Positions 30,447 through 49,308 of a DNA stretch of 64,000 nt are shown piece by piece. A program made the translations under genes and the position numbers. The notes beneath the pieces were generated by a model. That model was not told the origin of the DNA. It saw only the letters and a program-made list of their open reading frames with translations, and did no database searches. The stretch comes from an uncultured Spirochaetales bacterium. GTDB taxonomy: Bacteria > Spirochaetota > Spirochaetia > JABEVK01. Location: the NCBI GenBank assembly GCA_964475005.1, contig CAYYUZ010000002.1, positions 9,272 to 73,271 on the forward strand, read 5' to 3'. Within the stretch, counting starts at the first letter, position 1, and each line of letters begins with the position of its first letter.

Positions 30447-31995
30447 GGTGGTCCGCCAGCCGTAGAGCCAGGGCAACAATCGTGAGGGTGGGATTGGCGT
30501 AGCCGCTGGTGGGAAACTGCCCGCAACCCGCCGAGTACAGATTGTCGACGGTGTGGAAACGCGAGTCGGAATTGACGATACCTTCTTCGGAAGTCGCGGC
30601 CATGCGCAGAGCTCCCATGTGGTGGTCGCCGGTGGCCAGGGCGTTTTCGGTCCGCCCGAAGGTCCACTGCTCGGCTCCCCCCTCCAGATTGGTGGTGAGT
30701 CGGAACTCCGTGGCGCCGTGACGGCGCAGATAGGCTTCGCCTAAAGCCATGGCCCTCACCGCGGTCCTCTTGTCTTCTTCGGCCAGTCGCCAGTCGAGCC
30801 GGGTGACTGCTTGGTCAAAAACAGGGTCGACTTCACGCTCATCAAGGGTAATGCGGCTGGCTTCGTTGGGAACCTGCTCCCAGTTGATGTTGAGTTCCGC
30901 GCGGTCGCCCTCCGGGTTGAACCTGACAATGATGCGGAAGTTTCCGATCTTTTCTGCGGCCAGGGTTTCGTGCGTCGGGACCAAGACGCCCCACGCGTTG
31001 AAGACGCAATGCTTGAATAGAAGCCGCGGATCGACAAGCGGAGCCGTGTCGTGAACCCAGTCCTGTTGGGCTTCGGGGTTTCTCAGCCGGATCTGCTGGT
31101 CCCTGTAGAAATTTCTTACCTCGGCGGCGACAGGCTGGGCAAACCTGACCTCGGCGACCGTTGTGATGAGAGGATGGACCATGAAGCCCCTTCCCAAATG
31201 GTCTTTTCGGTTGTTGCCCAGGTCGCCCGAAAGCTTGAGAACCCTCACGGTCTCGATACCGCCCAGGGCCAGCACGAATTTCGAAGCCGTGACAGTAAAC
31301 CTGTGCCCTTCCCTCCCCCCTGCGATGCTGGCACAGACAAGGGAAGTGACGTGAGACTTGTCGGGGGAAGCCTCAATCTTGAGGAGACTCGCGTTGAACA
31401 GGACGGTCACATTGGCCGCCGCCTTAAGCGTGTCGCCCGCACGAAGCTGAAAATCGTGGTAACGTTCCTCGTACTGGGCATGAAAGATGGCGACGCCGAG
31501 TTCGTCACCCGGAAGCGTTGGGAAGTTCTTTCCAAACAGGGCCTTTTCCCAGAACGGCAGGTCGTCGAAATTGAATGGCCCGTAGCGGCCCCAATCCATG
31601 GCTTGTTGATAGTACGGGGTCAAAGTCTGTAGAGCAAAGGGCCAGGAGGCGGCGCGGTAGCCCGGCCGCGGAAGAAAGTCGGCCTCGTCGAGGGGCCTCG
31701 ACCAGAAGCCAAAGTGGTTGGTTGTCCCGCCGAACATATGCAGGCGAGATCTCCTCAGAAAGAGAGGGTCGACCTTTTCGAGGAAGGGGCCTCGGGTGCC
31801 ACCGTAGATCTTTTGGCGAAAACTGGGAGGAAGTCCTTTCTCGTCGGGAAGGCCGGCGGCGAGCACGAGAACTTTCTTGCCGCTCCCCGCCAAACGCCGC
31901 GCCAAGACCAGCCCCGCCGCGCCGGCGCCCACAATGCAGATGTCGTATTCGCGTACAAGAGTTCCGCGGGGAATGTCTTCACTGGAGAGGTACAT
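30433..31995 (-). CDS. GMC family FAD-dependent oxidoreductase
   Basis: N-terminal Rossmann fold DICIVGAGAAGLVLARRL, 520 aa, C-terminal GMC region (HHMGALRMA...). Confidence 0.8.
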   Translation of the reverse strand: MYLSSEDIPRGTLVREYDICIVGAGAAGLVLARRLAGSGKKVLVLAAGLPDEKGLPPSFRQKIYGGTRGPFLEKVDPLFLRRSRLHMFGGTTNHFGFWSRPLDEADFLPRPGYRAASWPFALQTLTPYYQQAMDWGRYGPFNFDDLPFWEKALFGKNFPTLPGDELGVAIFHAQYEERYHDFQLRAGDTLKAAANVTVLFNASLLKIEASPDKSHVTSLVCASIAGGREGHRFTVTASKFVLALGGIETVRVLKLSGDLGNNRKDHLGRGFMVHPLITTVAEVRFAQPVAAEVRNFYRDQQIRLRNPEAQQDWVHDTAPLVDPRLLFKHCVFNAWGVLVPTHETLAAEKIGNFRIIVRFNPEGDRAELNINWEQVPNEASRITLDEREVDPVFDQAVTRLDWRLAEEDKRTAVRAMALGEAYLRRHGATEFRLTTNLEGGAEQWTFGRTENALATGDHHMGALRMAATSEEGIVNSDSRFHTVDNLYSAGCGQFPTSGYANPTLTIVALALRLADHLTEG

Positions 31996-32017
31996 GCCTC
32001 ATGGTATACTAGGAACC

Positions 32018-32848
32018 ATGGCAGAATCCCCCTCTTCACGGGCGGAAATCACCGCGAGTTTTCTGGCCGCTATTCGTCCACAGGCCGTCGAGGTCAGGTT
32101 CTGCGAGCGTTTTGACGGTCAAAGCCGAATCTGGAACTTCGAGAACCACTCCCACGGGGTGTTTGAGTTCCTCTATTTTCTTGATGGAGGAGCCATGATC
32201 CGCGCCGGCGAGGCAGAGCTGGAGGCCGGGCTCTTCGACCTGGTCGTCTACCCACCGGGCGTGGTCCACGAGGAAAAGCTTGTCGAAGGGTTCCGTAATG
32301 AAGTCTTTTGCTTCTGGCTCGATTTGGGTGAGGTTCCCCGGTTCCCTTGGGGGATCAAGGTGCGCGATTCCACCGGAGAGATTCGCGTGCTGATCGAGGC
32401 CATCTATCAGGAGGCGGTTTCGCGCCGGCCCCTCGGCCCCGAGATGATCACAACCTATGTACAGGGACTGCTGGTATTGGCCCGGCGCTGGTTTGCCGAG
32501 CCCAACAGAGAGGACGGAGGCCTGGTTGGCCGATGCCTGAGCTACATTCACGAGCACTACACCGAGGACTTCGCCATTGAAACGATGGCCAAGGCCGTGG
32601 CGGTGAGCCCCTCCTACCTGTTCCGTTCGTTCAAGAAGAAGATGAACCAGACCCCCATGCACTTTCGCAACACCGTCAGGATTGAGAAGTCCAAACTCCT
32701 GTTGTGCCAAAGCAACCGCCGGATCGAACTGGTGGCCCTCGATCTAGGGTTCGCCGACGTGAAGTATTTCTCGTCGCTGTTCCGCCAGATCACCGGGCAG
32801 ACTCCCGGAACGTTTCGAAAGCTCAACCGGCACCCGGCGTTGCAGTAG
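32018..32848 (+). CDS. AraC family transcriptional regulator (cupin plus HTH)
   Basis: Cupin-like N-terminus (HSHGVFEFLYFLDGG) and AraC HTH C-terminus (SPSYLFRSFKKKMNQTPMHFR). ATG 32018; ATG 31994 would overlap the GMC start. Confidence 0.75.
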   Translation: MAESPSSRAEITASFLAAIRPQAVEVRFCERFDGQSRIWNFENHSHGVFEFLYFLDGGAMIRAGEAELEAGLFDLVVYPPGVVHEEKLVEGFRNEVFCFWLDLGEVPRFPWGIKVRDSTGEIRVLIEAIYQEAVSRRPLGPEMITTYVQGLLVLARRWFAEPNREDGGLVGRCLSYIHEHYTEDFAIETMAKAVAVSPSYLFRSFKKKMNQTPMHFRNTVRIEKSKLLLCQSNRRIELVALDLGFADVKYFSSLFRQITGQTPGTFRKLNRHPALQ

Positions 32849-32923
32849 ACAGTTCACTTTTGTCTACCTTCGCGTCATTCCACGGAGTTTCTATTTGGGG
32901 ACAGTGGAACTAGGCTAATAGAT

Positions 32924-35308
32924 ATGAAGAGTCTTCCTGTTTTCTTCATCCCGGAACCTTCCCTCAGAATTGCGTCGCTCAAGGCCAAACTCCAAGCCGA
33001 GCCACGGTACCTGTCGATTGAGCAAGCTCTCCTTGTCACCAAGACCTACAAGGCCCACGAAGGGGCTTCTGTCGCCAAGAAAAGGGCGCTCTCGCTGGCG
33101 CTGTCCCTCAGGGAGATTGGTATCGCCCTCGACATTGACGAACTGATCGTGGGCAATCGGACCGCGGGAATCCGGGCAGGGGTTGTTTTCCCCGAAGCGG
33201 GCATATCTTGGATCGACAAGGAGCTCGAGAGTCTGCCGACCCGCCCTCAGGACAGGTTCCTGGTTAGGCCCGACGACGCCCAGAAATTTCGCAAGGTCAT
33301 TTTGCCGTACTGGAAAGGAAAGACTCTTGAAGACACCATCAGGGAGGAGGCGGGCGACGTCGTCGATGCCATCGGCCGGGTGGTGAAGATCAATCAGAAG
33401 GACCACGCCCAAGGCCACATTTGCCCCGATACCGCGTTGTGGATCAAGGTGGGCGCTGCGGGTCTTCAACAGGACGCGCACAAGCGCTTGGATCAAGAGG
33501 CAGACCCAAGGAAGAAAGAGTTTTACGAGAGTGTTGTCATCGTCTTGTCGGCGGCAAGGGATTTCATGGTTCGCTATGCGGTGCAAGCCGAGGCCATGCT
33601 TCACACCGCCGGGGCCGACCAGCGCAGCAACCTGGCCGAGATCGCCCGGATCTGCCGAAAACTGGCCGGTCCAGCGGGAACCTGCGGGGCCGAGACCTTC
33701 CGCGAGGCCCTTCAGGCCCTGTGGTTTCTGTTTGTCATCCTCCATTTAGAAAGCAACGCTTCGTCGTTCTCGCCGGGTCGAGCCGACCAGTACTTGCTTC
33801 CCTACTTTCGCGCCGACCGCACGGCGGGCCGCTTGAGTGAGGCCGATGCGCTGGAACTGGTCGAGGCTCTCTGGTTGAAATTCAACCAGATCGTCTACCT
33901 GCGAAACGCTCACAGCGCCGCGTTTTTTGCCGGGTTTCCGATCGGATTTAACGTGGCCATCGGTGGCCGAAACCCCGATGCCTCTGATGCGGCGAACGAG
34001 CTTTCGTATCTGTTTCTTCAAGCGCAAGGAGCCCTGGGGCTTCCCCAACCCAACCTTTCGGCGAGACTCCACGAACGCTCGCCCCAGGAATTCCTCGACG
34101 CGTGCTCCACGGTGATCGGACGGGGCAGCGGCATGCCCCAAGTCTTCAATGATGAGAGCATCGTACCCGCGCTGACGGTGCAGGGTATTTCAAAAGCCGA
34201 TGCCGAAAACTACGCCATCGTCGGGTGCGTGGAACTGACCACTCACGGCAACAATCTTGGGTGGAGCGACGCGGCCATGTTCAACCTGCCCAAGGCCCTT
34301 GAGCTGGCCCTCAACGATGGAGTCGACCTGATTTCCGGACAAAGGCTGTCGCCGGGAACCGGCACTTTGGCCGACTATGCCACCTTCCTCGACGTCGAAA
34401 ACGCCTTTCGCGTTCAGATCGACTATTTCTTTGAAAAGATGATCGAGGCGTGCGAAAAAGTGGAATCGGCGCACCAAAGGCTCATGCCCACCGCCTTCCT
34501 TTCATCGGTCATCGGGGACTGTCTGGAAAGTGGGCTCGACGTGGTCGCCGGTGGGGCGCACTACAACCTTTCCGGTATCCAGGTGATCCAGCCGGCCAAC
34601 ATCGCCGATTCTCTGGCGGCGCTCAAGTCATTGGTCTACGACCGGCACGAAATTGACAGAGGCTTCGTATTGGATGCCCTCAGAAACAACTTTCACGACA
34701 ACGAGAGCCTTCAAAAGGTCCTCCTCGAGGAAGCCCCCAAGTACGGAAACGATGTGGAGTGGGTCGACGGGCTCGCGAACGTCTGGATCACCTACTTTGC
34801 TAAAAAGTTCGAAGGCCGTTCAAACTTTCGGGGCGGCCGCTACCACACGGGAATGTACACGGTGAGCGCCCACGTACCGATGGGGGCCAACGTCGGCGCC
34901 TCGCCCGACGGCAGGCTGGCCAAGACTCCTCTGGCTGACGGAGGGATGTCGGCCGTCTACGGCCGGGACCGCAAGGGACCGACCGCCGTTCTCAAATCGG
35001 TGTCTCGGATCAATTCCGCTCTCGGGAGCAACGGCACCCTGCTCAACCTGAAGTTCCTCCCGCAGTTCTTCTCGACACAAGAGGGAATCCGCAAGTTCTC
35101 AAGCCTGCTCAAGGCCTTCGTCAGACTTCGCATCAACCACGCGCAGTTCAACGTGGTTCGCAAGGAGGACCTCCTTGACGCGCAAAAACACCCAGAAAAC
35201 TATAGGTCGCTAACGATCCGGGTGGCCGGCTACACGGCCTACTTCACCGAGTTGGCCACGGATCTCCAGAATGAAATCATCGCCCGAACTTCGTATGACG
35301 ATCTTTGA
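32924..35308 (+). CDS. glycyl radical enzyme, PFL2/dehydratase-eliminase clade (794 aa)
   Basis: C-terminal glycine-radical motif RVAGYTAYFTEL. Single active-site Cys followed by Glu (AIVGCVELTTHG), as in glycerol dehydratase, CutC, HypD and IslA-type eliminases. Confidence 0.9.
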   Translation: MKSLPVFFIPEPSLRIASLKAKLQAEPRYLSIEQALLVTKTYKAHEGASVAKKRALSLALSLREIGIALDIDELIVGNRTAGIRAGVVFPEAGISWIDKELESLPTRPQDRFLVRPDDAQKFRKVILPYWKGKTLEDTIREEAGDVVDAIGRVVKINQKDHAQGHICPDTALWIKVGAAGLQQDAHKRLDQEADPRKKEFYESVVIVLSAARDFMVRYAVQAEAMLHTAGADQRSNLAEIARICRKLAGPAGTCGAETFREALQALWFLFVILHLESNASSFSPGRADQYLLPYFRADRTAGRLSEADALELVEALWLKFNQIVYLRNAHSAAFFAGFPIGFNVAIGGRNPDASDAANELSYLFLQAQGALGLPQPNLSARLHERSPQEFLDACSTVIGRGSGMPQVFNDESIVPALTVQGISKADAENYAIVGCVELTTHGNNLGWSDAAMFNLPKALELALNDGVDLISGQRLSPGTGTLADYATFLDVENAFRVQIDYFFEKMIEACEKVESAHQRLMPTAFLSSVIGDCLESGLDVVAGGAHYNLSGIQVIQPANIADSLAALKSLVYDRHEIDRGFVLDALRNNFHDNESLQKVLLEEAPKYGNDVEWVDGLANVWITYFAKKFEGRSNFRGGRYHTGMYTVSAHVPMGANVGASPDGRLAKTPLADGGMSAVYGRDRKGPTAVLKSVSRINSALGSNGTLLNLKFLPQFFSTQEGIRKFSSLLKAFVRLRINHAQFNVVRKEDLLDAQKHPENYRSLTIRVAGYTAYFTELATDLQNEIIARTSYDDL

Positions 35309-36071
35309 CGTTCAGCGCTTCTCGGTCCACGACGGACCGGGAATTCGCACGACGGCGTTTTTGAAGGGATGTCTGCTGAGGTGTGTGTGGTGCCAGAATC
35401 CTGAGGGGCTCAAGTTCGGCACAGGCGATCCGATGCACTCAAGCAAAGTCCGCGAAGTCACCCCAGCGGCCTTGGCCGAAGAACTGCTTGCCGACCGCGT
35501 GTTCTTCGAGACCTCGGGAGGAGGCGTCACGTTCTCAGGAGGCGAGCCGCTGGCGCAGGCCGAAGGTTTGGTTGAAACGGCCAGAATTCTACGCTCGCAA
35601 GGAATTCACGTCGCGGTTGAAACGTCGCTGGAGGTTCCTCTGGAGCGGCTCCAACGGGTTTTGGACGAGGTGGATTTGGTCCTGGCCGACCTCAAGGTTG
35701 CCGATCCAGAAGATCACAAGAAGTGGACCGGACGCGGAAATGAGAGGATTCTGGGGAACTTCCAGGCGCTGGCGAAGTATTCAGCAAAGCACGGACATCC
35801 TCAAATCGTCGTCCGCACGCCTCTGGTTCCGGGGCATACGGCCACCAAGGCCAACCTGACCAAACTCCGCGAGTTTCTGGCCTCTTGGGGACCTGTTTCT
35901 TGGGAACTTCTGGATTTCAACCCATTGGCCAAAGCCAAGTACCGGGCCCTCGGCCGCTCCGACTACCCTTTCGACCACCTCAGCACAGGCTTGACGCACG
36001 AAGAACGCTGCCAATTGAACGAGGCGGCCGGACTGATCGAATCACCGCCTAAGGAGACCTCCACCTCATGA
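35295..36071 (+). CDS. glycyl radical enzyme activating enzyme (radical SAM), compact form
   Basis: CLLRCVWCQNPE (CX3CX2C) near the N-terminus and FDVQRFSVHDGPGIRT. Only about 40 residues to the GGGVTFSGGEP motif, so no ferredoxin-like insertion. Overlaps the GRE stop by 14 nt. Confidence 0.9.
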   Translation: MTIFDVQRFSVHDGPGIRTTAFLKGCLLRCVWCQNPEGLKFGTGDPMHSSKVREVTPAALAEELLADRVFFETSGGGVTFSGGEPLAQAEGLVETARILRSQGIHVAVETSLEVPLERLQRVLDEVDLVLADLKVADPEDHKKWTGRGNERILGNFQALAKYSAKHGHPQIVVRTPLVPGHTATKANLTKLREFLASWGPVSWELLDFNPLAKAKYRALGRSDYPFDHLSTGLTHEERCQLNEAAGLIESPPKETSTS

Positions 36072-37912
36072 TTTCGAGTATCGAGTCGTTCTTGACACGA
36101 GCCAAAGCGGGTAGCCCGGTCTTCATCACCGAAGTCCGGCGAACCTTCGAAGCACTTCCGCGGGATCAGAGGTTTCGTCTGGGCGTCAACTTGACCCTGC
36201 CGGACCGCACGGTGCGCTGTTTTAGGATCACGCTACCAACGTTTGCCGTCGACAGCCAGCCGGATCCGCAGCGGCTCTTTGCCGAAGAGTACTTTCTTTC
36301 CGAAATGTACAACCGGATCTCGGCTCTGGGGGCCAGAGACCTCGAGTTTCGGACCGAGGAGGGACTGCCCGAAGCGGTTTGGCTGCACCAACGCTTTGAA
36401 GCCGCCTTCGGTCTGGCACAGAGGCGAAAGGCCCGACGGGGCTACGGCCGCGCCGTCAACGTTGTCGAGCGGATGATCGATTCTTTGGAACACACAACCA
36501 ATTCACGAATGTCGTGCCGGTTCACCCTCGGTCGTTTGGAGGAGGTTACTCAGGTGTCCCGTGCGCACAGTGGTGGAGTTCTCGCTCTGGCCGACCGAGC
36601 GCTGCGAGGGGTGGCACGACGCACCCTTTTAGGCATCGATGTGGGCGGAAGCGACATCAAACTGGCGTTGTCGATCGACGGCAGGCTGGCCGGCCTCAAG
36701 GAATACGACTGGTTCCCCGCTCAATTCACTCGCATCGCCTCGTTGACCGACCCCATCGAAGCTCTGGTAAGGCTCATGGCCTGGAAGGCTGTCGCATTGG
36801 GTGCCGCTGATGGAAGACCCGACCCAGCCCTCGATGCGGTTCTAGACCCGGCCTTTGCACTCAAAGCGGACAACGCCACCCTGAATCGAGTCTTGGAACT
36901 GGCCGCACCGCTTGTAGAAAGCCGCGACACAGCGTTCAAGCTCGACGGCATTGGACTCTCGTTTCCCGATGTCGTGGTCAAAGACAAGATTGTCGGCGGC
37001 GAGGTCTACAAGACCCGCGGCATCCGCGACAACCCTTCACTCGACTACGAGGCCGAGTTCCGCTCCCTGACCGAACTTGACACGCGTTTGCGGCGGTTGG
37101 TGAAGGACGGGGCCCCAGTGGTCACGGTGAACGACGGACCGATGGCCGCCTTCACGGCGCTGGTCGAAGGAAGTCTTGCCGATCCGAGCGGCGTCGAGGA
37201 CGGCATTTTTGCCCATACTCTCGGAACCGAACTCGGTACCGGCTGGGTGACCGAAAACGGCAAGATTCCTGACATCCCCCTCGAGGTCTACAACTTCATC
37301 ATCGACCTGGGCTCGTACCCCGAAAGGGAGTTCGACTGCGATGATCCCCGGAGTGTGAAGAACTTCAACACCGACCTTCCGGGCACCCTGCAGAAGTACA
37401 CAAGCCAGAGCGGCGCGTTCCGCCTGGCTCTCAAGCATTTCCCTGTCGAGCGTCCGGACTTGCTGAGAGAAATCTTCAAGAAAGGCTTCGTTGTGCCTGG
37501 TCCCGGTGACACTCTGCGAATTCCCTCGGAACCTCAAGATCAGCGCAAGCCGTTCCTCGAATACCTGATGGCCCTTCCTGATCGTGACGGGCAGGCTTCA
37601 GTGAACCGGATCTTTCGTGAGATCGGTGAGTTCCTCGCGGTAGCCACAGAGGAATGCAACCAGATTTTGCAACCCGCGGCTTCGCCTCGCATCCTTTTTG
37701 GACGCATGGTCAAGAACCCCTCGTGTTTTCGCTTGATGCGGGAGGGGGCGCAGTCGTTCGATCCGAAGATCACCCTCGGTCAGGCGGCCGACGACATGGC
37801 GATGTCAAAACTGATGCGCGAATTGAAGGAGGACCCCCGTCACACTGTGGCTCAATTCGCCCAGGCCGTTGGCGCGGTTCACTACGTTGCCAGCCGTTTT
37901 CAAGGCGCGTGA
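36068..37912 (+). CDS. uncharacterised ASKHA-superfamily (sugar-kinase/HgdC/ROK-like fold) protein with about 200-aa N-terminal extension
   Basis: Phosphate-1-like GIDVGGSDIKLAL near residue 215 and glycine-rich FAHTLGTELGTGWV later. ATGA overlap with the activase stop. Confidence 0.6.
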   Translation: MISSIESFLTRAKAGSPVFITEVRRTFEALPRDQRFRLGVNLTLPDRTVRCFRITLPTFAVDSQPDPQRLFAEEYFLSEMYNRISALGARDLEFRTEEGLPEAVWLHQRFEAAFGLAQRRKARRGYGRAVNVVERMIDSLEHTTNSRMSCRFTLGRLEEVTQVSRAHSGGVLALADRALRGVARRTLLGIDVGGSDIKLALSIDGRLAGLKEYDWFPAQFTRIASLTDPIEALVRLMAWKAVALGAADGRPDPALDAVLDPAFALKADNATLNRVLELAAPLVESRDTAFKLDGIGLSFPDVVVKDKIVGGEVYKTRGIRDNPSLDYEAEFRSLTELDTRLRRLVKDGAPVVTVNDGPMAAFTALVEGSLADPSGVEDGIFAHTLGTELGTGWVTENGKIPDIPLEVYNFIIDLGSYPEREFDCDDPRSVKNFNTDLPGTLQKYTSQSGAFRLALKHFPVERPDLLREIFKKGFVVPGPGDTLRIPSEPQDQRKPFLEYLMALPDRDGQASVNRIFREIGEFLAVATEECNQILQPAASPRILFGRMVKNPSCFRLMREGAQSFDPKITLGQAADDMAMSKLMRELKEDPRHTVAQFAQAVGAVHYVASRFQGA

Positions 37913-37965: not shown

Positions 37966-38706
37966 ATGACCAAGCGCCTTGACCAAATTCTGAAGATCCT
38001 CTCAGAACAGCACAAAGTCTCGGTGATTGAACTTTCGGAAGACCTGAAGGTTTCTCCGGCCACCATTCGACAAGATTTGACAGTGCTTGAGCAGGAAGGC
38101 CTACTTGTCCGCAACCATGGCGGGGCCGAGCTCAGGGAATCGGACGATCTGGCCCATCGCATGGCGATCAACTACGAAGACAAACTGAAGATCGCCCACA
38201 AGGCGGTAGAACTTGTCGATGAAGGCGATACAATCTTTGTCGAGTCCGGGTCAACCAACGCAATCTTCGTGAAGGAGCTGACGGCCGCCAAGCGGGTGAC
38301 CATCATCACGTCCAACGCCTTCATCGCCCGCAAGGTCGACCAATCCAGGGGTGGAAGCGTGATCTTGATCGGCGGCGTCTTTCAGAGGGAAAGCGAAAGC
38401 ATCGTCGGCAATATGGCCAAGGACAACATCGACCAGGTCAACTTTAACCGGGCCTTTTTGGGAGTCGACGGGTTCACCCCCGAAACCGGGTTCACCGGCC
38501 GCGACATGATGCGCGCCGAGATCGTCAACTACATCGTTTCCAAGGCCCGCGAAGTCATCATCCTCACCGATTCTTCGAAGTTCGGGCAAATCCACCTGTC
38601 TCGCTGTTGCCGGCTCGAAGACGTCGACCGCATCATCACCGACGGCCGCCTCTCGGAAAAGTACCGGGAGTTGGTGTCGGCAAAAGTTGACTTGATGCTG
38701 GTGTAG
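37966..38706 (+). CDS. DeoR family transcriptional regulator
   Basis: N-terminal DeoR HTH (RLDQILKILSEQHKVSVIELSEDLKVSPATIRQDLTVLE) and C-terminal sugar-phosphate-binding domain. Confidence 0.85.
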   Translation: MTKRLDQILKILSEQHKVSVIELSEDLKVSPATIRQDLTVLEQEGLLVRNHGGAELRESDDLAHRMAINYEDKLKIAHKAVELVDEGDTIFVESGSTNAIFVKELTAAKRVTIITSNAFIARKVDQSRGGSVILIGGVFQRESESIVGNMAKDNIDQVNFNRAFLGVDGFTPETGFTGRDMMRAEIVNYIVSKAREVIILTDSSKFGQIHLSRCCRLEDVDRIITDGRLSEKYRELVSAKVDLMLV

Positions 38707-42696: not shown

Positions 42697-42839
42697 CCCA
42701 GAGCCTCCAATGCGCCAAAGGCTAATCCGAAGCAGGGACGCTGTCAAGCAAAATGTTCGTTTATTCAGATATACGAAAGCTATTTCATTTCACTTGAAGT
42801 CATGATATTCTTCATTTGTCGACATTTGGAGGGCAATCG

Positions 42840-43799
42840 ATGAGTTCACTTCTTTGTGGAGTAGACCTGGGAGGCACCAAACTCAGCGTGGGATTGGTGA
42901 AAGAAACCGGTGAAGTTCTAGACCAGGTGACGGTCTACGATCACAGCAAGAAGGCGCCAGACCTTATCTTGGAGGAGATCGCTAACCTTGTGCGGCAGCT
43001 GCTTGCCAACCATGGACTGGGCGAAAAGGACCTGCGCGGCATCGGTGTGGCCACCGCGGGTCACCTCAGGTATCGCGACGGAGTTCTGATTACAATGTCG
43101 AACCTGGAAGGCTTCCGCCAGTATCCCATCCGCGACAAAATGGCAGCCCATTTTTCGGTGCCCATCGAAGTCGACAACGACGCCAACGCGCAGGCCTACG
43201 CCGAGTACAAGTTTGGGGCCGGCCGGGGCTACCAGGACATGATCTTCATGACCCTCAGCACCCAGATCGGCGCCGGTATCGTTTTGGGGGGCCAGCTGTT
43301 TCGGGGAATGACGGGGACCGCGGGAGAAATCGGCCACACCATTGTCGACCCCCACAGCGACCTCGTCTGCCCCTGCGGCAACCGGGGCTGCCTGATCGCC
43401 GTGGCTTCGGGCGTTTCGCTTCCCGCGATTGTTACCAAAAAGCTGAGCTCGGGGTTGGTTTCCAAAAGGATTTCGCTGGAGACTCTCGCCTCGACGGTGA
43501 TCGACGGCAACTTTATCCGCGAAGGATTGGCCCAAGGCGATCCGCTATGCCAAAGCGTGGTCGCCGATTACGCCGGGTCCATAGGAATCGGCATCTACAA
43601 CCTGTTCCAGATCTTCAACCCTGAAGCCGTAGTTCTTGGCGGCGGCTTGACCCAGTGGGGTGCGCCGCTTTTTGAGGGAATTCGCAACCGGGTCCGAGAA
43701 CTGGCCCGCGACATGATGTTCGATCCGATGGCCATCCTTGAGGGGACAGTCGCCAACTCAGGGCTGGTCGGGGCGGCGTCTCTGGTGTCCAAAAAATGA
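42840..43799 (+). CDS. ROK family sugar kinase (glucokinase / N-acetylglucosamine kinase-like)
   Basis: LLCGVDLGGTKLSVGLV and ROK zinc motif CPCGNRGCLIAVASG. GGAGGG RBS before ATG 42840. Confidence 0.85.
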   Translation: MSSLLCGVDLGGTKLSVGLVKETGEVLDQVTVYDHSKKAPDLILEEIANLVRQLLANHGLGEKDLRGIGVATAGHLRYRDGVLITMSNLEGFRQYPIRDKMAAHFSVPIEVDNDANAQAYAEYKFGAGRGYQDMIFMTLSTQIGAGIVLGGQLFRGMTGTAGEIGHTIVDPHSDLVCPCGNRGCLIAVASGVSLPAIVTKKLSSGLVSKRISLETLASTVIDGNFIREGLAQGDPLCQSVVADYAGSIGIGIYNLFQIFNPEAVVLGGGLTQWGAPLFEGIRNRVRELARDMMFDPMAILEGTVANSGLVGAASLVSKK

Positions 43800-45277
43800 A
43801 CCTGCGTTTCGACATCGTCATTGTGGGCTCGGGTCTCGGTGGCTCGGCGGCCGCCAAGGTTCTGCAGGAGACAGGGCGGTCCATCCTTATCCTTGAACGG
43901 GGCGACTACGTCAAACAGGAAAAGGCGAATTGGGATGTCATCGAAGTCTCGGTCAAACGGCGCTACGACTCTCCAGAGAAATGGATCGACGGTAACGGGA
44001 AGGAATTCAGCCCACGCACCTACTACAACGTGGGGGGAAGCACCAAGTTCTACGGAGGAACGGCGCTGAGGTTCCGGGAATCGGACTTTGCGGCCCGGAC
44101 TCTGGGGGAAGGAAGGACGGTGGCGTGGCCGTTTTCCTACGATGAGCTGAGGCCTTGGTACGATCAGGCCGAGAGACTCCTTGAGGTTCACGGCCAAACC
44201 GGCGAGGACCCCACAGAGCCGCCGCGGGGTCCCTTTCCCTTCCCTCCCCTCGAGCAAGAGCCCGTTATCGCCACGCTGGCCGAGCGGTTGCGAAGTCAAG
44301 GCCTCCACCCCATCCATTTGCCTATCGCCGTCGACCAAGGGGGCAAGGGTCGTTGCATCAAGGGCAGTCCTTGCGACGGGTTTCCTTGCCTGTACCGAGC
44401 CAAGGGCGACGCGGAAAACCGCCTTTTGCGCCCCCTGCTCTTAAAGAAACCCGCCAACGTCACGTTGTGGACCAACGCCCTGGTCGAACGGCTCGAAACT
44501 GGCCCGAGCGGTGCGGTCACTTCGGTCCTGGTGGTTCGAAACGGTGAACGGGTCGAGGTGGAAGGCGGTGTCTTTATCCTATCGGCGGGTGCAGTGAATT
44601 CGGCAGCCCTTCTGCTGAAATCCAAGAGCCCTCGGCACCCCAATGGCCTAGCCAACGGCTCCGATCAGGTGGGGCGGAATTTCATGTCGCACAACAATAC
44701 GGTTCTGCTGGCTCTCTCGCCCTGGCGCAAGAATCCGACGGAGTTTCAGAAGACTCTGACCATTCACGACTTCTACGAGTGGGGGACGATTCAATGCCGA
44801 GGCAAGGTCAAGCCGGAAATGCTGCAGAGCAAGAACGCCTGGGCGCTTCGAACCTTTCGCAAGGCCATTGCGGCCCGAAGCGTGGACTTTTGGGTGATGT
44901 CGGAGGACCTTCCCGACCCTTCCAACCGAGTGACCGTGGACGACGAGGGGCGAATCCACCTGACCCGAAAGGCCACCAACCTCGCGGCGCATCGCGCCTT
45001 GGTCACAAGGGCCAAGAGCATGCTGGCGAAAGCCGGCCTTCCTCTGTGCTTTGTCGACGAGCGCGGCATCAACGCCATCCAGCACCAGTGCGGAACAGTC
45101 CGCATGGGCGACGATCCTCGTACCTCGGTGCTCGACCCGTGGTGCCGAAGCCATGAAGTCGAGAACCTCTACGTGATCGACGCAGGCTTCTTTCCTTCTT
45201 CTGCGGCGGTCAATCCGGCCCTGACGGTCCTAGCCCAGGCCCTGAGGGCGGCCGAGCACCTGAAAAGGTCGTTCTAG
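43796..45277 (+). CDS. GMC family FAD-dependent oxidoreductase (second copy)
   Basis: FDIVIVGSGLGGSAAAKVL Rossmann fold, 493 aa. Start overlaps the ROK stop. Confidence 0.8.
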   Translation: MNLRFDIVIVGSGLGGSAAAKVLQETGRSILILERGDYVKQEKANWDVIEVSVKRRYDSPEKWIDGNGKEFSPRTYYNVGGSTKFYGGTALRFRESDFAARTLGEGRTVAWPFSYDELRPWYDQAERLLEVHGQTGEDPTEPPRGPFPFPPLEQEPVIATLAERLRSQGLHPIHLPIAVDQGGKGRCIKGSPCDGFPCLYRAKGDAENRLLRPLLLKKPANVTLWTNALVERLETGPSGAVTSVLVVRNGERVEVEGGVFILSAGAVNSAALLLKSKSPRHPNGLANGSDQVGRNFMSHNNTVLLALSPWRKNPTEFQKTLTIHDFYEWGTIQCRGKVKPEMLQSKNAWALRTFRKAIAARSVDFWVMSEDLPDPSNRVTVDDEGRIHLTRKATNLAAHRALVTRAKSMLAKAGLPLCFVDERGINAIQHQCGTVRMGDDPRTSVLDPWCRSHEVENLYVIDAGFFPSSAAVNPALTVLAQALRAAEHLKRSF

Positions 45278-46020
45278 ACCTTCAAAACGATGATTCCTGA
45301 CTCCTGCAAGAATCGAAAGTCGGGCTCGGGGATGCCAGTGTCGGTGATGACCGTGTGGATGCTTGTGTTCTCGCCGCAAATGGGCGCCAAATGTGCAGCC
45401 CCAAACTTGCTCGAATCGGTCAGAATGTAGCTCGCGGCTCCCTTGGAAAGGATGGCCTGAGTGATCTCGGCGCGAAGCGAATCGTTGAGGGTGAAGCCCG
45501 TTGTCTGGGTGAAACCTGTGACTCCGAGAAAACACTTGGAAAACGTGAGTTCTGCTAGGGCGTTTTTCGTCACCGAGCCGACAAAGCTTTCGCTACTCTC
45601 TTGGTAGAAACCGCCCAAGACAATGACGCGGGTACCGCTGGCACGAAACAGCCGCGCGATAAAGAGGTTCGACGTGATGACCGTGAGGTTGCGCAGATCC
45701 TTGATCCTCTCGGCAAGGATGGACACCGTTGAACCGGCCTCAAGGAGGATGGTATCACCGGGTTCGATGAACGTTGCCGCCGCTCGGGCGATGCGAGACT
45801 TGTCTTCGAACCGGGAGCCCATGCGGAAGGGAATCTCGTCACCCTCAAACGCCCGCGCCTCGCCGTGAAACCTGCGGACCAACATCTTCTTTTCAAGCGC
45901 CGAGAGAGTCTTGCGGATCGTGACCCCCGAGACGCCAAGCTCGGCGGCGAGATCCAGAACCTTCTTCGGTCCGCCCCGCAACACAAGGTCGGCCACTTGG
46001 GATTCCAGGTCGCGTTTCAT
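45274..46020 (-). CDS. DeoR family transcriptional regulator (second copy)
   Basis: DeoR HTH LVLRGGPKKVLDLAAELGVSGVTIRKTLSALEKKMLV. ATG 46020 overlaps the GRE2 stop (ATGA). Confidence 0.85.
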   Translation of the reverse strand: MKRDLESQVADLVLRGGPKKVLDLAAELGVSGVTIRKTLSALEKKMLVRRFHGEARAFEGDEIPFRMGSRFEDKSRIARAAATFIEPGDTILLEAGSTVSILAERIKDLRNLTVITSNLFIARLFRASGTRVIVLGGFYQESSESFVGSVTKNALAELTFSKCFLGVTGFTQTTGFTLNDSLRAEITQAILSKGAASYILTDSSKFGAAHLAPICGENTSIHTVITDTGIPEPDFRFLQESGIIVLKV

Positions 46021-48407
46021 CAGAGTCTGTGTTCCGTCCGCGCAATGATGTCGTCTTGAGTGTCCGAAGCCAGGTCTCGGAAAAAGGCCGAGTACCCGGC
46101 CACACGAACAACAAGATCGCGGTACTTCTCGGGGTCCTTCTTGGCCGCGATCAGGGTCTCGCGCGAAACGATGTTGTACTGCACGTGCCACCCCCCCAAG
46201 TCGTCGAAGAAGGTCCGGATCAGCGCTTCAAGTTTCAATTTGTCGTTGGGCGTTTCAAGAGACTTGGGCGAGAGTTTTTGGTTGAGCAGGACACCGCCGA
46301 AGATCCGCCCAGCGGGAAGTTTGCCGATCGACTTGAAGACCGCGGTGGGTCCCAGAAGATCGGTGCCCGACGACGGGGAGCAGCCTTCGGCCAGAGGAGT
46401 TCCTGCATGACGGCCGTCGGCGGTGGCCCCGACTTCTGAACCCGACGGAACGTTGGAGGAAATGCTCGACGTTCCGGGGTAGTAGCCGCCGCCGATGGGT
46501 CCCCTCCCCCAACGCGTGTTGTGAAGTTTCTCGATCTGGTCGGCAAAGTACCCGTAGGCCTCCACTACTAAGGCGTCGACTTCGTCGTTGTCATTGCCGA
46601 ACTTGGGGGCCCCGTTGAGAAGCCGTTGCCTGAGGATCTCCCCCTGGGGACCCGCAAAATCGTTGGCCAGTGCGTCGAGCAGTTCCTGACGGCCGATGAC
46701 GCCTTCTTCGAAGACAAGTTTCTTCACCGCGGCCAGGGCGTTGCCCAAATTGGCGACGCCAACCTGCAGGCCTGAAACCCAGTCGTAAACCGCGCCCCCC
46801 TCCTTGAGGTGCTTTCCGCGGGCGATACAGTCGTCGGTGAAGACAGAGCACAGAACATCGGGAACAAGCTCTTCGAGCGCCGTGTCGACCGCGACATCGA
46901 TGGCAACCGTGGCCCGGGCGTAGAACTGCACCTGTTTCTTCCAGGCTTCCATCAACGCCCCGAAGTCGGCAAAGTCAGCCAGTTTCCCCGTTCCCGCCAG
47001 GAAGGTCATTCCCGTCTCGGGATCACGGCCATCCTGGAGCGCGAGATTGAAAACCCTCATGAAGTTCAGAAAGCTCATGCCGGTGGTGCGGTAGCCCCAC
47101 TTGCCGGGAACCGCCACCTCGATACAACCGATGGCCGAGTAGTCGCGGGCGTCTTCCAAACTGACCCCCAAGCGGAGCATGCCGGGAATGACCACCTCGT
47201 CGTTGTTGAAGGCCGGCATGCCGAAGCCCTTCTCAATCACGCGTATTGAGGCGGCCAGGAACTCCGCGCTCGTGCCCGAATGGTACCGGATCGAGAGGTT
47301 GGGCTGAGTCAGCTTCATCTCACCGACAGACTCCAAGATGAGGAAACTGAGGGCATTGGTGGCGTCGTGGCCGTCAAGCCCGACTCCGCCGATCGTCACG
47401 TTTTGGTACAGAGGCCCGCCGGCCGACGTTCGTGTGTGCGACGCCGATCGAACCTTCTTGATCGAAGTCAGTTTGATCCACGTCCAGCAGAGTCCCTGTT
47501 TGGCGGTTTCGCGGTCGAGAGTTCCGGCCTTCAAGTCGCGGTCGTAGTACGGCCCCAAGTACTGGTCCAGACGCCCGAACGACAAAGAATGCCCGTTGGA
47601 CTCGATCTGCAGAACAATCTGCAAAAAGACGCAAAGCTGGAGCGCTTCAAAGAACGTTTGCGGAGGCTTGGTGGAGATGACCTCGCAGGTCTGAGCGATC
47701 TTCTTCAGCTCCTCAGCCCTTTGGGGATTGTTCTCGGCTACAGCCTGCTGACGCGCTAGCTCGGCGTACCTCTCGATATACCTCGAGAGCCCGCTGAGCG
47801 CATCGAGCATCGCAAGGTACAACTGACGCTTTTTGAGGTCGAAGAACGACGCGGGGTCAAGTTCGGCCAACGCCTTTTCAACCTTGCGCCTAGTCCCTCC
47901 TACCCCAAACTCCAAAGCCTTGCGGAGGTTGATCGCCACGTGCCCGTCTCCCGAGGTCATGTTCCCCTCGGCCTTGATGATCTTGGTGGCGTGAAGTTCC
48001 TCAAGCTCAGGAGACAACAAGGCGTGGGCACGCTCCTGCAGAGTTTTGCCCCGCCAGAACTGACAAATCTCCTTGAGTTCGGCCTTCTCTTGAGGCGTCC
48101 CGAGGTAGGCCTCCGCTGGACGTTTGTCGATGGTGTCGATTTCGCTGGCAAGCCAACCCACAGAGTATTCGGGAAAGATCGGCGCCGCCTTGGGTCGGGA
48201 GGAGTGGTTGCCGACGATGGTCTCGTCAGGCTCAATGAAGATGACCATCTCTTCAAGGGTTTTTCGCAGAGCGAGTCCCCTCCTCCGGACAATCGGCAAG
48301 GCCTCGTTCTCACGGTAGACACGGGTGTAGATGCGCGCCCGCTCCAGGCAGAGGCTTGCCTTTGTCGACAACATGCGGTCTTTGGCAAGCATCAGCTTCT
48401 CGCTCAT
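46020..48407 (-). CDS. glycyl radical enzyme, PFL2/eliminase clade (795 aa, second copy)
   Basis: Glycine-radical motif RVAGYSAFFRDL. Active-site Cys-Ile-Glu (SAIGCIEVAVPG). Confidence 0.9.
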   Translation of the reverse strand: MSEKLMLAKDRMLSTKASLCLERARIYTRVYRENEALPIVRRRGLALRKTLEEMVIFIEPDETIVGNHSSRPKAAPIFPEYSVGWLASEIDTIDKRPAEAYLGTPQEKAELKEICQFWRGKTLQERAHALLSPELEELHATKIIKAEGNMTSGDGHVAINLRKALEFGVGGTRRKVEKALAELDPASFFDLKKRQLYLAMLDALSGLSRYIERYAELARQQAVAENNPQRAEELKKIAQTCEVISTKPPQTFFEALQLCVFLQIVLQIESNGHSLSFGRLDQYLGPYYDRDLKAGTLDRETAKQGLCWTWIKLTSIKKVRSASHTRTSAGGPLYQNVTIGGVGLDGHDATNALSFLILESVGEMKLTQPNLSIRYHSGTSAEFLAASIRVIEKGFGMPAFNNDEVVIPGMLRLGVSLEDARDYSAIGCIEVAVPGKWGYRTTGMSFLNFMRVFNLALQDGRDPETGMTFLAGTGKLADFADFGALMEAWKKQVQFYARATVAIDVAVDTALEELVPDVLCSVFTDDCIARGKHLKEGGAVYDWVSGLQVGVANLGNALAAVKKLVFEEGVIGRQELLDALANDFAGPQGEILRQRLLNGAPKFGNDNDEVDALVVEAYGYFADQIEKLHNTRWGRGPIGGGYYPGTSSISSNVPSGSEVGATADGRHAGTPLAEGCSPSSGTDLLGPTAVFKSIGKLPAGRIFGGVLLNQKLSPKSLETPNDKLKLEALIRTFFDDLGGWHVQYNIVSRETLIAAKKDPEKYRDLVVRVAGYSAFFRDLASDTQDDIIARTEHRL

Positions 48408-48411
48408 CGTC

Positions 48412-49308
48412 TCATCCTCCCAGGGTAACGGCGAATCCCCATTCGGCGGCCGCCGCTCGCCATCGGTCCAGAGTGACTTGATTCAGTGGTTTGCGGGTGT
48501 AGGGGTTAGCACGGCCCAACTGGGCATACTTTCCGGCCGCCAACTCGTGATACGGCAAAATGTCCACCCGCGCGGGCTTCAAGGTTCGCTCCAGGCCGGC
48601 AATGAGTCCAAACAACCGTTCTCTGTCGTCTTCACCATCGTTGAAGTCGGGAATCAGCGGTATACGGTAGGTCACCCGTGGGGCCGACCGCGAAACTGTG
48701 CGAAGGTTATCAAGGATAGGCGACAGCCGTCCCGAAGTCTGTTCCAGAAACTTCGTTTCGTCGATGTGCTTGACGTCAACAAGCCATTCGATGGGATACG
48801 GCAGCAGCACCGCCAACGCCGCGGGCGGGGCCGCGAGGCAGGTCTCGATCGCGACGTCGATGCCAGCTTCGATCAACTGTTCCAGGCACGGCACCAGGAA
48901 CTCAGCCTGGTCGAGCGGTTCTCCGCCCGAAAACGTCACACCGCCGCCGCTCTTGGCAAAAAAGAGGCGATCTTTGAGGACTTCGGCGATCAACGCGGAG
49001 GAATCGACCTCACGGCCTGCGATTCGGATCGCCTGGGTGGGGCAAACCTTCCCCAATCCGGGCGGCACGGGTCGAGTTCTGTCCGGAACAATCATGCCGG
49101 CCGTTTCCTGCATCGCACCGCCAAACTGCGGCTCAAGGCACGAGCGGCAACGAATACAGCGTTTGGCGTCAAAGAGGATCTCGGCGTCCCTCTTCTGGCT
49201 CTCGGGGTTGGAGCACCATTGACACCGCAGCGAACACCCTTTCAAGAACACGACGGTCCGGATTCCCGGCCCGTCGTGAGTTGAATAGCGCTGAACATCA
49301 AAGATCAT
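48412..49308 (-). CDS. glycyl radical enzyme activating enzyme with ferredoxin-like insertion
   Basis: CSLRCQWCSNPE radical-SAM cluster motif, plus an extra Cys cluster (CIRCRSC...CPTQAI) between the SAM cluster and GGGVTFSGGEP. Confidence 0.9.
   Translation of the reverse strand: MIFDVQRYSTHDGPGIRTVVFLKGCSLRCQWCSNPESQKRDAEILFDAKRCIRCRSCLEPQFGGAMQETAGMIVPDRTRPVPPGLGKVCPTQAIRIAGREVDSSALIAEVLKDRLFFAKSGGGVTFSGGEPLDQAEFLVPCLEQLIEAGIDVAIETCLAAPPAALAVLLPYPIEWLVDVKHIDETKFLEQTSGRLSPILDNLRTVSRSAPRVTYRIPLIPDFNDGEDDRERLFGLIAGLERTLKPARVDILPYHELAAGKYAQLGRANPYTRKPLNQVTLDRWRAAAAEWGFAVTLGG

Follow-up and report, generated by a model that had tools for sequence, protein, structure and literature searches.

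A spirochaete locus with two glycyl radical enzyme modules is predicted to support a transporter-and-kinase version of anhydroglycolysis

Here, we describe a locus of an uncultured Spirochaetales bacterium in which two glycyl radical enzymes (GRE1 and GRE2), each with its own radical-SAM activase (AE1 and AE2), lie in opposite orientation and enclose further regulator, redox, epimerase-like and kinase genes (Table 1). The window, i.e., the whole stretch of DNA analyzed, is 64,000 nucleotides long. All genes of the original prediction were recovered as ORFs at or near their predicted positions, with their families supported by Pfam; the starts of the BNR, RPE-like and DeoR2 genes are, however, probably internal to their ORFs, and within the enclosed block the Gfo and RPE-like genes had to be corrected to the minus strand. 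The region had been described as an island of ∼17 kb. Its composition does not mark it as an island, the window contains no tRNA, and the functional locus reaches left to ∼23.9 kb to include a CUT2 ABC importer, a HAD phosphatase gene, a LacI gene and a second GMC gene, so that the whole locus covers ∼23.9 to 49.3 kb. The expectation that microcompartment genes are absent held: shell genes are carried by pdu/cut/grp-type GRE loci, whereas none of the annotated ORFs of the window contains a shell domain, and the 17-kb region is so gene dense that it leaves no room for them. PTS domains are likewise absent from the annotated ORFs of the window, and no sulfite-handling genes are present. DeoR2 is the final gene of an AE2-GRE2-DeoR operon, and it probably starts at MKRDLESQ, overlapping the stop codon of GRE2.

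Table 1. Genes of the locus, with positions in the window and the supporting matches
Feature	Position	Strand	Support
HAD-family phosphatase-like gene, end of transporter operon	23884-24543	-	DLDGT motif
CUT2-type sugar ABC importer, whole	24540-29088	-	Pfam
CUT2 permeases, two	24540-25610 and 25532-26500	-	Pfam BPD_transp_2 (twice)
CUT2 double ATPase	26497-27996	-	Pfam ABC_tran (twice)
CUT2 periplasmic binding protein	28078-29088	-	Pfam Peripla_BP_4
LacI-family regulator	29265-30446	+	Pfam LacI, Peripla_BP_3
GMC flavoprotein oxidoreductase 1 (GMC1), without signal peptide	30433-31995	-	Pfam GMC_oxred_C, GMC_oxred_N
AraC regulator of GRE1 operon	32018-32848	+	Pfam HTH_18, HTH_AraC
GRE1	32924-35308	+	Pfam PFL-like (E 2e-184), Gly_radical
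AE1, GRE1 activase	35271-36071	+	Pfam Radical_SAM, Fer4_12
KIN614, 614-aa protein	36068-37912	+	No Pfam or NCBIfam match
DeoR-family regulator 1 (DeoR1)	37966-38706	+	Pfam HTH_DeoR, DeoRC
AraC-family regulator 2 (AraC2)	38766-39698	+	Pfam
BNR/Ycf48-like secreted protein	ORF 39571-40737, start probably ~39874	+	Pfam
Gfo/Idh/MocA dehydrogenase (Gfo)	40768-41892	-	Pfam
RPE-like TIM-barrel protein	ORF 41902-42747, start probably ~42696	-	Pfam Ribul_P_3_epim, 70 bits
ROK-family hexokinase	ORF 42816-43799, gene given as 42840-43799	+	Pfam ROK (E 6e-62)
GMC flavoprotein oxidoreductase 2 (GMC2)	43796-45277	+	Pfam
DeoR-family regulator 2 (DeoR2)	ORF 45274-46191, start probably ~46020	-	Pfam
GRE2	46020-48407	-	Pfam PFL-like (E 1.6e-197), glycine-radical (E 1.2e-30)
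AE2, GRE2 activase	48412-49308	-	TIGR02494, 278 bits, full length

The closest characterized relatives of the two GREs, YbiW and PflD of Escherichia coli, were reportedly described by Ma et al. (JACS, 2024), and their pathway is said to have been named “anhydroglycolysis.” Its substrates derive from 1,5-anhydrohexitols, which are 1-deoxy sugars. According to the sections on these enzymes in two articles, YbiW is the ring-opening C-O lyase for 1,5-anhydroglucitol-6-phosphate (AG6P) and PflD that for 1,5-anhydromannitol-6-phosphate (AM6P) (PMC13450708, PMC12441222), and both yield 1-deoxyfructose-6-phosphate (DF6P) (PMC13450708, section 5.7; PMC12441222, section 5.1).

GRE2 groups with YbiW. First, GRE2 and E. 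coli YbiW share 55% identity along the entire protein, and in a phmmer search of the PDB GRE2 scores 962 bits against the YbiW structures (8id7, 8yjn, and 6xs4) compared to 575 bits for the second-best family, glycerol dehydratase. Second, in a neighbor-joining tree of 133 GREs, GRE2 and YbiW cluster with 96 to 98% bootstrap support. Third, all ten active-site segments inspected, a comparison that serves as a proxy for the AG6P-contacting residues of PDB 8ID7, are of the YbiW type, including GNMTSGD[AG]H, ESNGHS, PLYQN, GKWGYRxTG, and TSSISxNVP. The Cys loop IGCIEV, with a single Cys followed by x-Glu, aligns with IGCIET of YbiW (C441/E443), YRTTG replaces the GW-HD segment that follows this loop in dehydratases, and the glycyl motif is RVAGY (VRVAGYSAFF). 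AE2 is a long-form activase with a Cys-rich insert and shares 39% identity with E. coli YbiY; the CX3CX2C motif is present in it as well as in AE1. On these sequence grounds, GRE2 is a YbiW-type enzyme inside a characterized clade, and we predict that it acts as an AG6P C-O lyase.

GRE1 lies beside PflD rather than with it. Its identity is 41% to PflD of E. coli and 38% to glycerol dehydratase, and its PDB scores are 611 bits for PflD, 546 bits for glycerol dehydratase, and 442 bits for YbiW. In the same tree, which is neighbor-joining and not maximum likelihood, the GRE1 and PflD clades are monophyletic with 100% bootstrap support; however, GRE1 falls outside the PflD subclade (94% support) in a subclade of its own (98 to 100%), and its score of 706.6 bits on the PflD equivalog model NF007437/PRK09983 is below the cutoff of 1109 bits. 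Seven active-site segments (NQxDxxQGHI, ESNASS, AGFPxG[FY], GxGxPQ, VGCVEL, YTVSAHVP, and ADGGxS) are common to GRE1 and PflD and differ in YbiW and in glycerol/diol dehydratases. Among them is the Cys loop, again with one Cys followed by x-Glu; the glycyl motif is RVAGY. By contrast, the Cys-loop tail sets the GRE1 clade (THGNNLGWSD) consistently apart from PflD (IPG[RK]TYGLHD), with loss of the PflD basic residue, and several other pocket-adjacent segments also differ. The AM6P contacts are those of PDB 8ID0. AE1 is a short radical-SAM activase lacking the ferredoxin-like insert; TIGR02494 matches it in two pieces, and its alignment with PflC (34% identity) has a gap at the insert position. 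GRE1 thus classifies, by sequence, as a member of a large, uncharacterized environmental sister clade of PflD and is predicted to be a 1,5-anhydrohexitol-6-phosphate ring-opening C-O lyase.

The protein encoded downstream of AE1, KIN614, has a ROK/ASKHA two-lobe fold in which the ATP-binding and catalytic-Asp motifs are invariant, which upholds its earlier assignment to ASKHA. The ROK family HMM PF00480 misses it, as does every other Pfam and NCBIfam model. KIN614 lacks the zinc motif CxCGxxGC and the ExGH sugar motif, the equivalent region reading PLEVYNF, and C553 is the sole invariant Cys among 42 sequences. Compared to the ROK kinases N-acetylmannosamine kinase (2YHW) and ROK glucokinase (3VGK), to which it is 14 to 20% identical, it differs by an extra N-terminal domain of ∼180 aa, by the missing zinc motif, by escaping ROK HMMs and by its tie to GRE genes: a KIN614-type gene adjoins a GRE1-type GRE in 44 of the 45 species loci with enough flank. 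The lone exception is a Propionivibrio operon (ABC, GRE, AE, GMC, kinase, SDH-like; L049), the GRE of which is a true PflD orthologue with 69% identity. Because an orthologue of PflD stands in the place of GRE1 in this operon, the kinase product would be a PflD-type substrate. We predict that KIN614 is a divergent ROK-fold sugar kinase that makes the GRE1 substrate.

The order GMC-AraC-GRE1-AE-kinase-DeoR-Gfo-RPE-ROK-GMC-GRE2 is repeated in another spirochaete MAG with proteins that are 65 to 83% identical, and because of this recurrence the arrangement is not due to chance. In 11 of 45 loci, a GRE1-type module lies together with a YbiW-type one, which mirrors the pairing of PflD and YbiW in E. 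coli. The CUT2-type importer precedes the GRE1-type operon in 39 to 43 of 81 loci. Of 36 loci, 16 have an AraC homologue upstream of the GRE1-type gene and 14 have a DeoR1 homologue; the LacI regulator is found in only about 4 related loci. The AraC protein of the GRE1 operon is 34% identical to the E. coli yijO product over 93 aa. The HAD gene, for which we infer a phosphatase-like role, is matched by a HAD gene at the equivalent position in a spirochaete relative (L004/L005), and GMC1 has a 78% identical counterpart at the same position in L005. That the neighboring genes belong to one system was borne out for the kinase and redox genes but not for AraC2 and the BNR protein, which occur in none of the 36 long loci and are missing from the otherwise syntenic L005; these two are probably a lineage-specific insertion outside the pathway.

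Gfo scores 256 bits on the NCBIfam model LevoglcsnDh, below the cutoff of 650, and 247 and 213 bits against PDB 4h3v and levoglucosan dehydrogenase (LGDH; 6a3f), respectively; it is classed here as a levoglucosan-dehydrogenase-like NAD(P) sugar dehydrogenase. Orthology to anhydrofructose reductase was rejected, the PDB match being partial and 89 bits. The 1,5-anhydrofructose pathway of Sinorhizobium morelense (anhydrofructose reductase, PDB 2GLX) similarly links a Gfo/Idh/MocA oxidoreductase to anhydro-sugar catabolism; however, its reductase matches the spirochaete Gfo weakly, the latter being nearer to levoglucosan dehydrogenase-like enzymes, and that route is aerobic with mannose as end product. 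The gfo gene travels across loci with the gene for the RPE-like protein, which belongs to a tight family (64 to 89% identity) that is divergent within the ribulose-phosphate-3-epimerase family (top PDB match to an RPE, 66 bits). The cassette of RPE-like, Gfo and ROK genes accompanies a YbiW-type GRE in one locus (L095) and occurs without any GRE in two (L093 and L094). The ROK kinase scores 199 bits, below the cutoff, on the glucokinase family TIGR00744; a ROK gene occurs in 11 of 36 loci, repeatedly beside a YbiW-type GRE, and it is predicted to be a 1,5-anhydroglucitol kinase feeding GRE2. PDB matches relate GMC2 to FAD glucose and fructose dehydrogenases, specifically to their catalytic subunits (FAD-GDH alpha 6a2u, 144 bits; fructose dehydrogenase 7w2j, 121 bits). 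GMC2 homologues occur in 9 of 36 loci, and the PflD operon of Propionivibrio also has one. The GMC/Gfo/RPE-like/ROK block recurs with GRE modules and may serve in substrate supply.

Based on which genes are present, on their families and clades, on the fold of the kinase and on the conserved association of the genes, we propose, with a probability of about 0.65, that the locus encodes PTS-independent anhydroglycolysis for 1,5-anhydrohexitols, in a transporter-and-kinase version, in an anaerobic spirochaete. Free anhydro sugars would enter through the CUT2 ABC importer and be phosphorylated at O6 by two ATP-dependent kinases: the canonical ROK kinase would convert 1,5-anhydroglucitol to AG6P for GRE2, and KIN614 would most likely convert 1,5-anhydromannitol to AM6P for GRE1. 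Each activase would install the glycyl radical on its own GRE. The C2 hydrogen would be abstracted via the loop cysteine and the C2-OH deprotonated by the loop glutamate, whereupon the C1-O5 ring bond would break to give DF6P. For the cleavage of DF6P to glyceraldehyde-3-phosphate and hydroxyacetone, the pathway would rely on an aldolase gene elsewhere in the genome. The two GMC proteins, Gfo and the RPE-like barrel may convert related keto forms or epimers, e.g., 1,5-anhydrofructose, to GRE substrates; the DeoR regulators may sense sugar phosphates and AraC the free sugar.

The E. coli loci, as given in two articles, are ybiW-ybiY-fsaA and frwCB-pflDC-frwD with ptsA-fsaB-gldA (PMC13450708, PMC12441222). 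Both systems have two GRE and activase pairs, one of the YbiW type and one of the PflD branch, the Cys-x-Glu loop, an AraC-type gene adjoining the PflD-branch enzyme (yijO in E. coli) and HAD-phosphatase neighbors; YbiU-like genes, as found beside E. coli ybiW, occur in 5 related loci. They differ in that E. coli uses the PTS where the spirochaete locus has an ABC importer and two ATP-dependent kinases, and in that the E. coli loci encode Fsa aldolase and GldA, whereas tblastn found no FsaA, FsaB or GldA homologue in the window; an Fsa-like aldolase lies ∼2 kb from the kinase in L022, the sole related locus with an Fsa homologue. Moreover, the spirochaete has both modules in one locus with additional GMC, Gfo and RPE-like genes, and its GRE1 is a sister-clade enzyme of PflD, not an orthologue. 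The claim that the arrangement matches no characterized pathway did not survive, GRE2 being YbiW type and GRE1 sister to PflD, and YbiW and PflD having been characterized in 2024. Because one GRE falls inside a characterized clade and the other beside one, with neighbors that are not unrelated housekeeping genes, the case against the novelty envisaged in the original prediction is half made.

There is a smaller but real chance that GRE1 and KIN614 use the same chemistry on a third substrate, neither AM6P nor AG6P, for example a different epimer of the 1,5-anhydrohexitols or the phosphate of a related cyclic ether or cyclitol. The well-supported separate subclade, with only ∼41% identity to PflD, and the divergent Cys-loop tail and pocket-adjacent segments point in this direction, as do the variable accessory redox genes (an AroE-like dehydrogenase in 26 of 81 loci; GMC, Gfo or SDR elsewhere). 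One locus (L010/L059) carries GRE1-type, PflD-clade and YbiW-type GREs together, which argues for three different substrates. However, its PflD-clade paralogue is only 45% identical to PflD and could itself be the enzyme with the novel substrate, and AM6P is favored by the PflD orthologue in the Propionivibrio kinase operon, by the seven PflD-type segments of GRE1 and by the recurring partnership with a YbiW-type enzyme, as in E. coli. We regard it as improbable that KIN614 is not a metabolic kinase and serves instead in regulation or as an ATP-dependent aid to the activation of the GREs. Least probable of all is the original reading, in which both GREs are dehydratases/eliminases of an entirely new pathway that acts on a modified sugar or a sulfonated compound. 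In its favor, both have the Cys-x-Glu loop, score 546 to 575 bits against glycerol dehydratase and lack shell genes nearby. Against it speak the far higher YbiW score of GRE2, the replaced pocket segments of both enzymes (in GRE1, ES[NS]GHS to ESNASS and GYPMYQN to GFPIGFN), the lack of sulfite-handling genes at the locus, and scores of about half the cutoff for both GREs on sulfonate-lyase and HypD/CutC equivalog models. B12-independent glycerol dehydratase of Clostridium butyricum (1R8W) and propanediol dehydratase (5I2A) share with the two GREs the fold, glycyl loop, Cys loop with Glu and dedicated activase (37 to 39% identity) but differ in the pocket segments, and the locus has no diol-pathway or microcompartment genes. 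What stands of the original reading is C-X cleavage by enzymes unlike pyruvate formate-lyase, here predicted to be isomerizing C-O lyases rather than strict dehydratases or eliminases, and a deoxy sugar or polyol as substrate in the form of 1,5-anhydrohexitols.

Anhydroglycolysis without a PTS remains our preferred reading. GRE1 and the adjoining KIN614 kinase represent widespread families, none of which has been characterized so far, and a third substrate for GRE1 would amount to a new GRE specificity.

In the window lies a locus that probably encodes a known pathway, the radical ring-opening of 1,5-anhydro sugars, in a new form that does not depend on the PTS, and it holds an uncharacterised sister clade of glycyl radical enzymes (GREs) and an unannotated kinase family, both worth testing. 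The E. coli enzymes YbiW and PflD were reportedly characterised by Ma et al. in 2024 as ring C–O-cleaving enzymes. The functions used here are those given by secondary sources. In these sources, YbiW cleaves the ring C–O bond of 1,5-anhydroglucitol-6-phosphate (AG6P) and PflD that of 1,5-anhydromannitol-6-phosphate (AM6P) (PMC13450708; PMC12441222, summarising Ma et al. 2024); both substrates enter via the PTS, and the product of both enzymes is 1-deoxyfructose-6-phosphate, which FsaA or FsaB converts to glyceraldehyde-3-phosphate and hydroxyacetone (PMC13450708; PMC12441222). Whereas the E. coli-type system is PTS dependent, the locus in the window has an ABC importer and kinases.

The original prediction, which described a two-GRE "island" of about 17 kb as a candidate novel pathway, was correct in what it observed, while its interpretation is supported only in part. 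All of its genes were recovered by ORF listing and Pfam/NCBIfam scans at essentially the coordinates claimed. The single-Cys-x-Glu loop that it had assigned to GRE1 and GRE2 is present in both enzymes, as is RVAGY, and their radical-SAM activases, AE1 and AE2, contain CX3CX2C. Likewise, the scans found no shell-protein domain in any annotated ORF of the window, in agreement with the claim that microcompartment shell genes are absent. By contrast, the composition of the region is not distinct, and GC deviation, tRNA and integrase are all absent; a mobile "island" is thus rejected, and "locus" is the better term.

Table. Genes of the two GRE modules, the block between them and the flanking regions.
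Group	Feature	Position	Strand	Basis
Upstream	GH31	11472-13958
Upstream	HAD-family phosphatase-like	23884-24543
Upstream	ABC system	24540-29088
Module 1	AraC	32018-32848	+	ORF listing, Pfam/NCBIfam
Module 1	GRE1, 794 aa	32924-35308	+	ORF listing, Pfam/NCBIfam
Module 1	AE1, 266 aa	35271-36071	+	ORF listing, Pfam/NCBIfam
Module 1	614-aa protein	36068-37912	+	ORF; no HMM match
Module 1	DeoR	37966-38706	+	ORF listing, Pfam/NCBIfam
Central block	AraC2
Central block	BNR/Ycf48-like protein
Central block	Gfo/Idh/MocA		-
Central block	RPE-like	41902-42696	-
Central block	ROK		+
Central block	GMC		+
Module 2	DeoR		-	ORF listing, Pfam/NCBIfam
Module 2	GRE2, 795 aa	46020-48407	-	ORF listing, Pfam/NCBIfam
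Module 2	AE2	48412-49308	-	ORF listing, Pfam/NCBIfam
Downstream	365-aa membrane protein	49411-50508
Downstream	895-aa protein	50695-53382

The HAD-family phosphatase-like gene comes after the ABC permeases and is kept in a spirochaete relative (L004/L005); in E. coli, the HAD sugar phosphatase gene ybiV adjoins ybiW. Just past AE2 lie a membrane protein without a Pfam match and, next to it, a protein with FlgD-Ig, Big_13, CHU_C and OmpA domains; nothing observed ties either of them to the locus.

Sequence comparisons place the two GREs differently. In PDB sequence searches, GRE2 matched YbiW best (8id7, 8yjn, 6xs4; 962 bits), followed by glycerol dehydratase at 575 bits. It is 55% identical to YbiW of E. 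coli K-12 and groups with it at 96 to 98% bootstrap in a neighbour-joining tree of 133 full-length GREs (200 bootstraps) and, judged by sequence, can be filed as YbiW-type. The best match of GRE1 was PflD (8id0, 8yjo; 611 bits), then glycerol dehydratase (546 bits) and YbiW (442 bits). GRE1 is 41% identical to PflD of E. coli K-12, and its score of 706 bits lies under the NCBIfam PflD equivalog threshold of 1109 bits. The tree, for which the input was cluster representatives, E. coli PflD and YbiW, and PDB sequences (a PflD homologue, glycerol dehydratase, propanediol dehydratase and 9rco; transcribed, with a few terminal residues missing), unites the PflD and GRE1 clades at 100% bootstrap, with 94% for the PflD subclade and 98 to 100% for the GRE1 subclade. 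Moreover, GRE1 and PflD have in common the segments NQxDxxQGHI, ESNASS, AGFPxG[FY], GxGxPQ, VGCVEL, YTVSAHVP and ADGGxS, which are different in YbiW and the dehydratases. We suggest that GRE1 works like PflD, and we treat it as PflD-like, not as a PflD.

Searched against 1.84 billion cluster representatives, GRE1 proved to be a member of a distinct sequence family: its closest match had 62% identity, the second 45% and the remainder ∼40%. Well over a hundred members at 62 to 81% identity, from Spirochaetota, Chloroflexota, Planctomycetota and actinobacterial MAGs, were found in a search of 90% clusters. A literature search returned no report of this GRE clade or of a kinase-dependent variant, and a June 2026 review of GREs names only YbiW and PflD. 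AE1 is a short activase that lacks the Cys-rich ferredoxin-like insert; AE2 carries this insert, as does the activase in most of the other GRE1-type loci (302 to 342 aa, Fer4 matches). An extra GRE of 766 aa, ∼30% identical to every reference used, lies beside GRE1-type modules in two related loci (L031, 3069-5369; L035, 2563-4863).

The GRE1 module recurs across distant genomes. The neighbourhoods of GRE1 homologues inspected in six distant genomes all contain AraC, GRE, activase and a protein of ∼610 aa, often together with a CUT2 ABC importer and with GMC or Gfo genes. The nearest spirochaete MAG encodes an 890-aa activase-kinase fusion in a locus otherwise syntenic save for AraC2 and BNR. 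Scanning one genome per species with an alignment of the 614-aa protein, a predicted ROK-fold kinase, found 380 species, and 80 loci were examined (81 in some counts). A GRE1-type GRE was present in 44 of the 45 loci having at least 3.6 kb on each side of the kinase, 11 of which also had a YbiW-type GRE. The sole exception, in Propionivibrio (L049), has a PflD orthologue with 69% identity to the E. coli enzyme at the centre of the same operon (ABC, GRE, activase, GMC, kinase, AroE-like dehydrogenase, HbpS-like, YbiU-like). In the 36 loci where 9 kb or more flanks the kinase on each side, AraC1-like genes were found in 16, DeoR in 14, ROK in 11, GMC2-like in 9, RPE-like in 3 and Gfo in 2; BNR and AraC2 were found in none of the 36. 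A gene of the shikimate dehydrogenase (AroE-like) family lies directly downstream of the kinase or beside the GRE in 26 of 81 loci (including L015, L024, L043, L046, L049, L064 and L076). It is absent from the window, where the GMC and Gfo genes may replace it.

Two smaller families recur in these neighbourhoods. YbiU-like (DUF1479/Gig2-like) genes occur in five related loci (L049, 13398-14693; L015, L016, L038 and L090) at 41 to 45% identity, and in E. coli such a gene (L001, 2797-4062) adjoins ybiV-ybiW, a distribution that may signal a so far overlooked function in the metabolism of anhydro sugars. Small HbpS-like/DUF336 genes are found in L019, L020, L026, L038, L049, L052, L084, L087 and L094, and in the RPE-like cassette.

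The main rival reading is that the GRE1 clade acts on a substrate of its own. The GRE1 subclade is separate from PflD, and the tail of its Cys loop is altered in a consistently clade-specific manner (THGNNLGWSD versus IPG[RK]TYGLHD in PflD). Also in favour, a Clostridia MAG (GCA_040772725.1; L010/L059) has three GRE and activase pairs in a single locus, namely a YbiW-type pair, a GRE1-type pair plus kinase and a PflD-clade paralogue plus DeoR. However, the Propionivibrio operon, in which a PflD orthologue takes the GRE1 position, and the recurrent YbiW-type partner of GRE1-type modules count against it. We consider it unlikely, if still worth weighing, that the GRE1 clade and an obligate ROK-fold kinase form a third GRE sugar C–O lyase system with a substrate unlike those of YbiW and PflD, and that additional rare sugars would be channelled into this system by the GMC/Gfo/RPE-like cassette. 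That the GREs are of the dehydratase or sulfolyase type has little support.

The 614-aa protein had no match by Pfam, NCBIfam or PDB phmmer, and its >1,220 full-length homologues are nearly all named "hypothetical"; only structure prediction succeeded in identifying it. The AlphaFold model, based on a 42-sequence alignment, is confident (pLDDT 91.8, pTM 0.92), while identity to ROK-family kinases is 14 to 20%. Invariant in the alignment are the phosphate-1 motif D191-x-G-G, the catalytic pair N355-D356 and the phosphate-2 motif G386-T-E-x-G. The protein lacks the zinc motif of ROK enzymes and has an additional N-terminal domain of ∼180 residues. The idea that it is not a kinase has little support. 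In a related spirochaete lineage, activase and kinase are fused into a single protein of 854 to 890 aa (L004/L005, 12357-15029; P0126, P0127).

The RPE-like protein is one of a closely knit family (64 to 89% identity), and its gene travels with those of a Gfo dehydrogenase and a ROK kinase. This cassette lies beside a YbiW-type GRE (60% identical to YbiW) in L095 and occurs without any GRE in L093 and L094. By eye, the RPE metal-ligand and catalytic positions of the RPE-like protein carry non-canonical residues, H-I-E rather than H-x-D and Gln for the His of DVHLM. As the family is strongly conserved all the same, the protein could be something other than a ribulose-phosphate epimerase. GMC2 most resembles the catalytic subunits of FAD glucose and fructose dehydrogenases. 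Two candidate assignments were rejected. Gfo gave a partial match of 89 bits as an anhydrofructose reductase orthologue versus 213 to 247 bits for levoglucosan-dehydrogenase-like proteins. The GH31 protein, considered as an α-1,4-glucan lyase supplying anhydrofructose, has α-xylosidases as its best structural relatives by sequence (466 to 497 bits); its gene neighbours are AraC, MFS and SBP.

For the PTS-independent variant, we infer all substrates of the locus genes as follows. The ABC system would import free 1,5-anhydrohexitols. The ROK kinase would then generate AG6P for GRE2, and the 614-aa kinase would generate the GRE1 substrate, most likely AM6P. Each GRE would then break the ring open through the radical chemistry reported for YbiW and PflD. 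The GMC, Gfo and RPE-like proteins could plausibly turn keto forms or epimers, e.g., 1,5-anhydrofructose, into GRE substrates. The ring-opened product would be taken by an aldolase encoded elsewhere in the genome; tblastn of the window found no FsaA/FsaB or GldA homologues, and an Fsa homologue is present in only one related locus.

To our knowledge, radical ring-opening of 1,5-anhydro sugars has so far been documented only from gut bacteria, in PTS-dependent systems of the E. coli type. The locus and its ∼380 relatives, which span Spirochaetota, Chloroflexota, Planctomycetota, Clostridia, Anaeromyxobacter and Rhodocyclaceae, suggest that an ABC-plus-kinase version is common in uncultured anaerobes. 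The GRE1 clade is found in hundreds of environmental anaerobes, with a partner kinase family invisible to Pfam. The locus also provides candidate non-PTS parts for engineered routes from starch to 1,2-propanediol, and it raises the question of the origin of 1,5-anhydro sugars in these habitats. If the GRE1 clade did form a third system, this would add a GRE specificity and a kinase family not known before, both serving an unrecognised environmental carbon source. Altogether, these findings offer a concrete, testable function for two unannotated families, a PflD-sister GRE clade and a kinase family without a Pfam domain.
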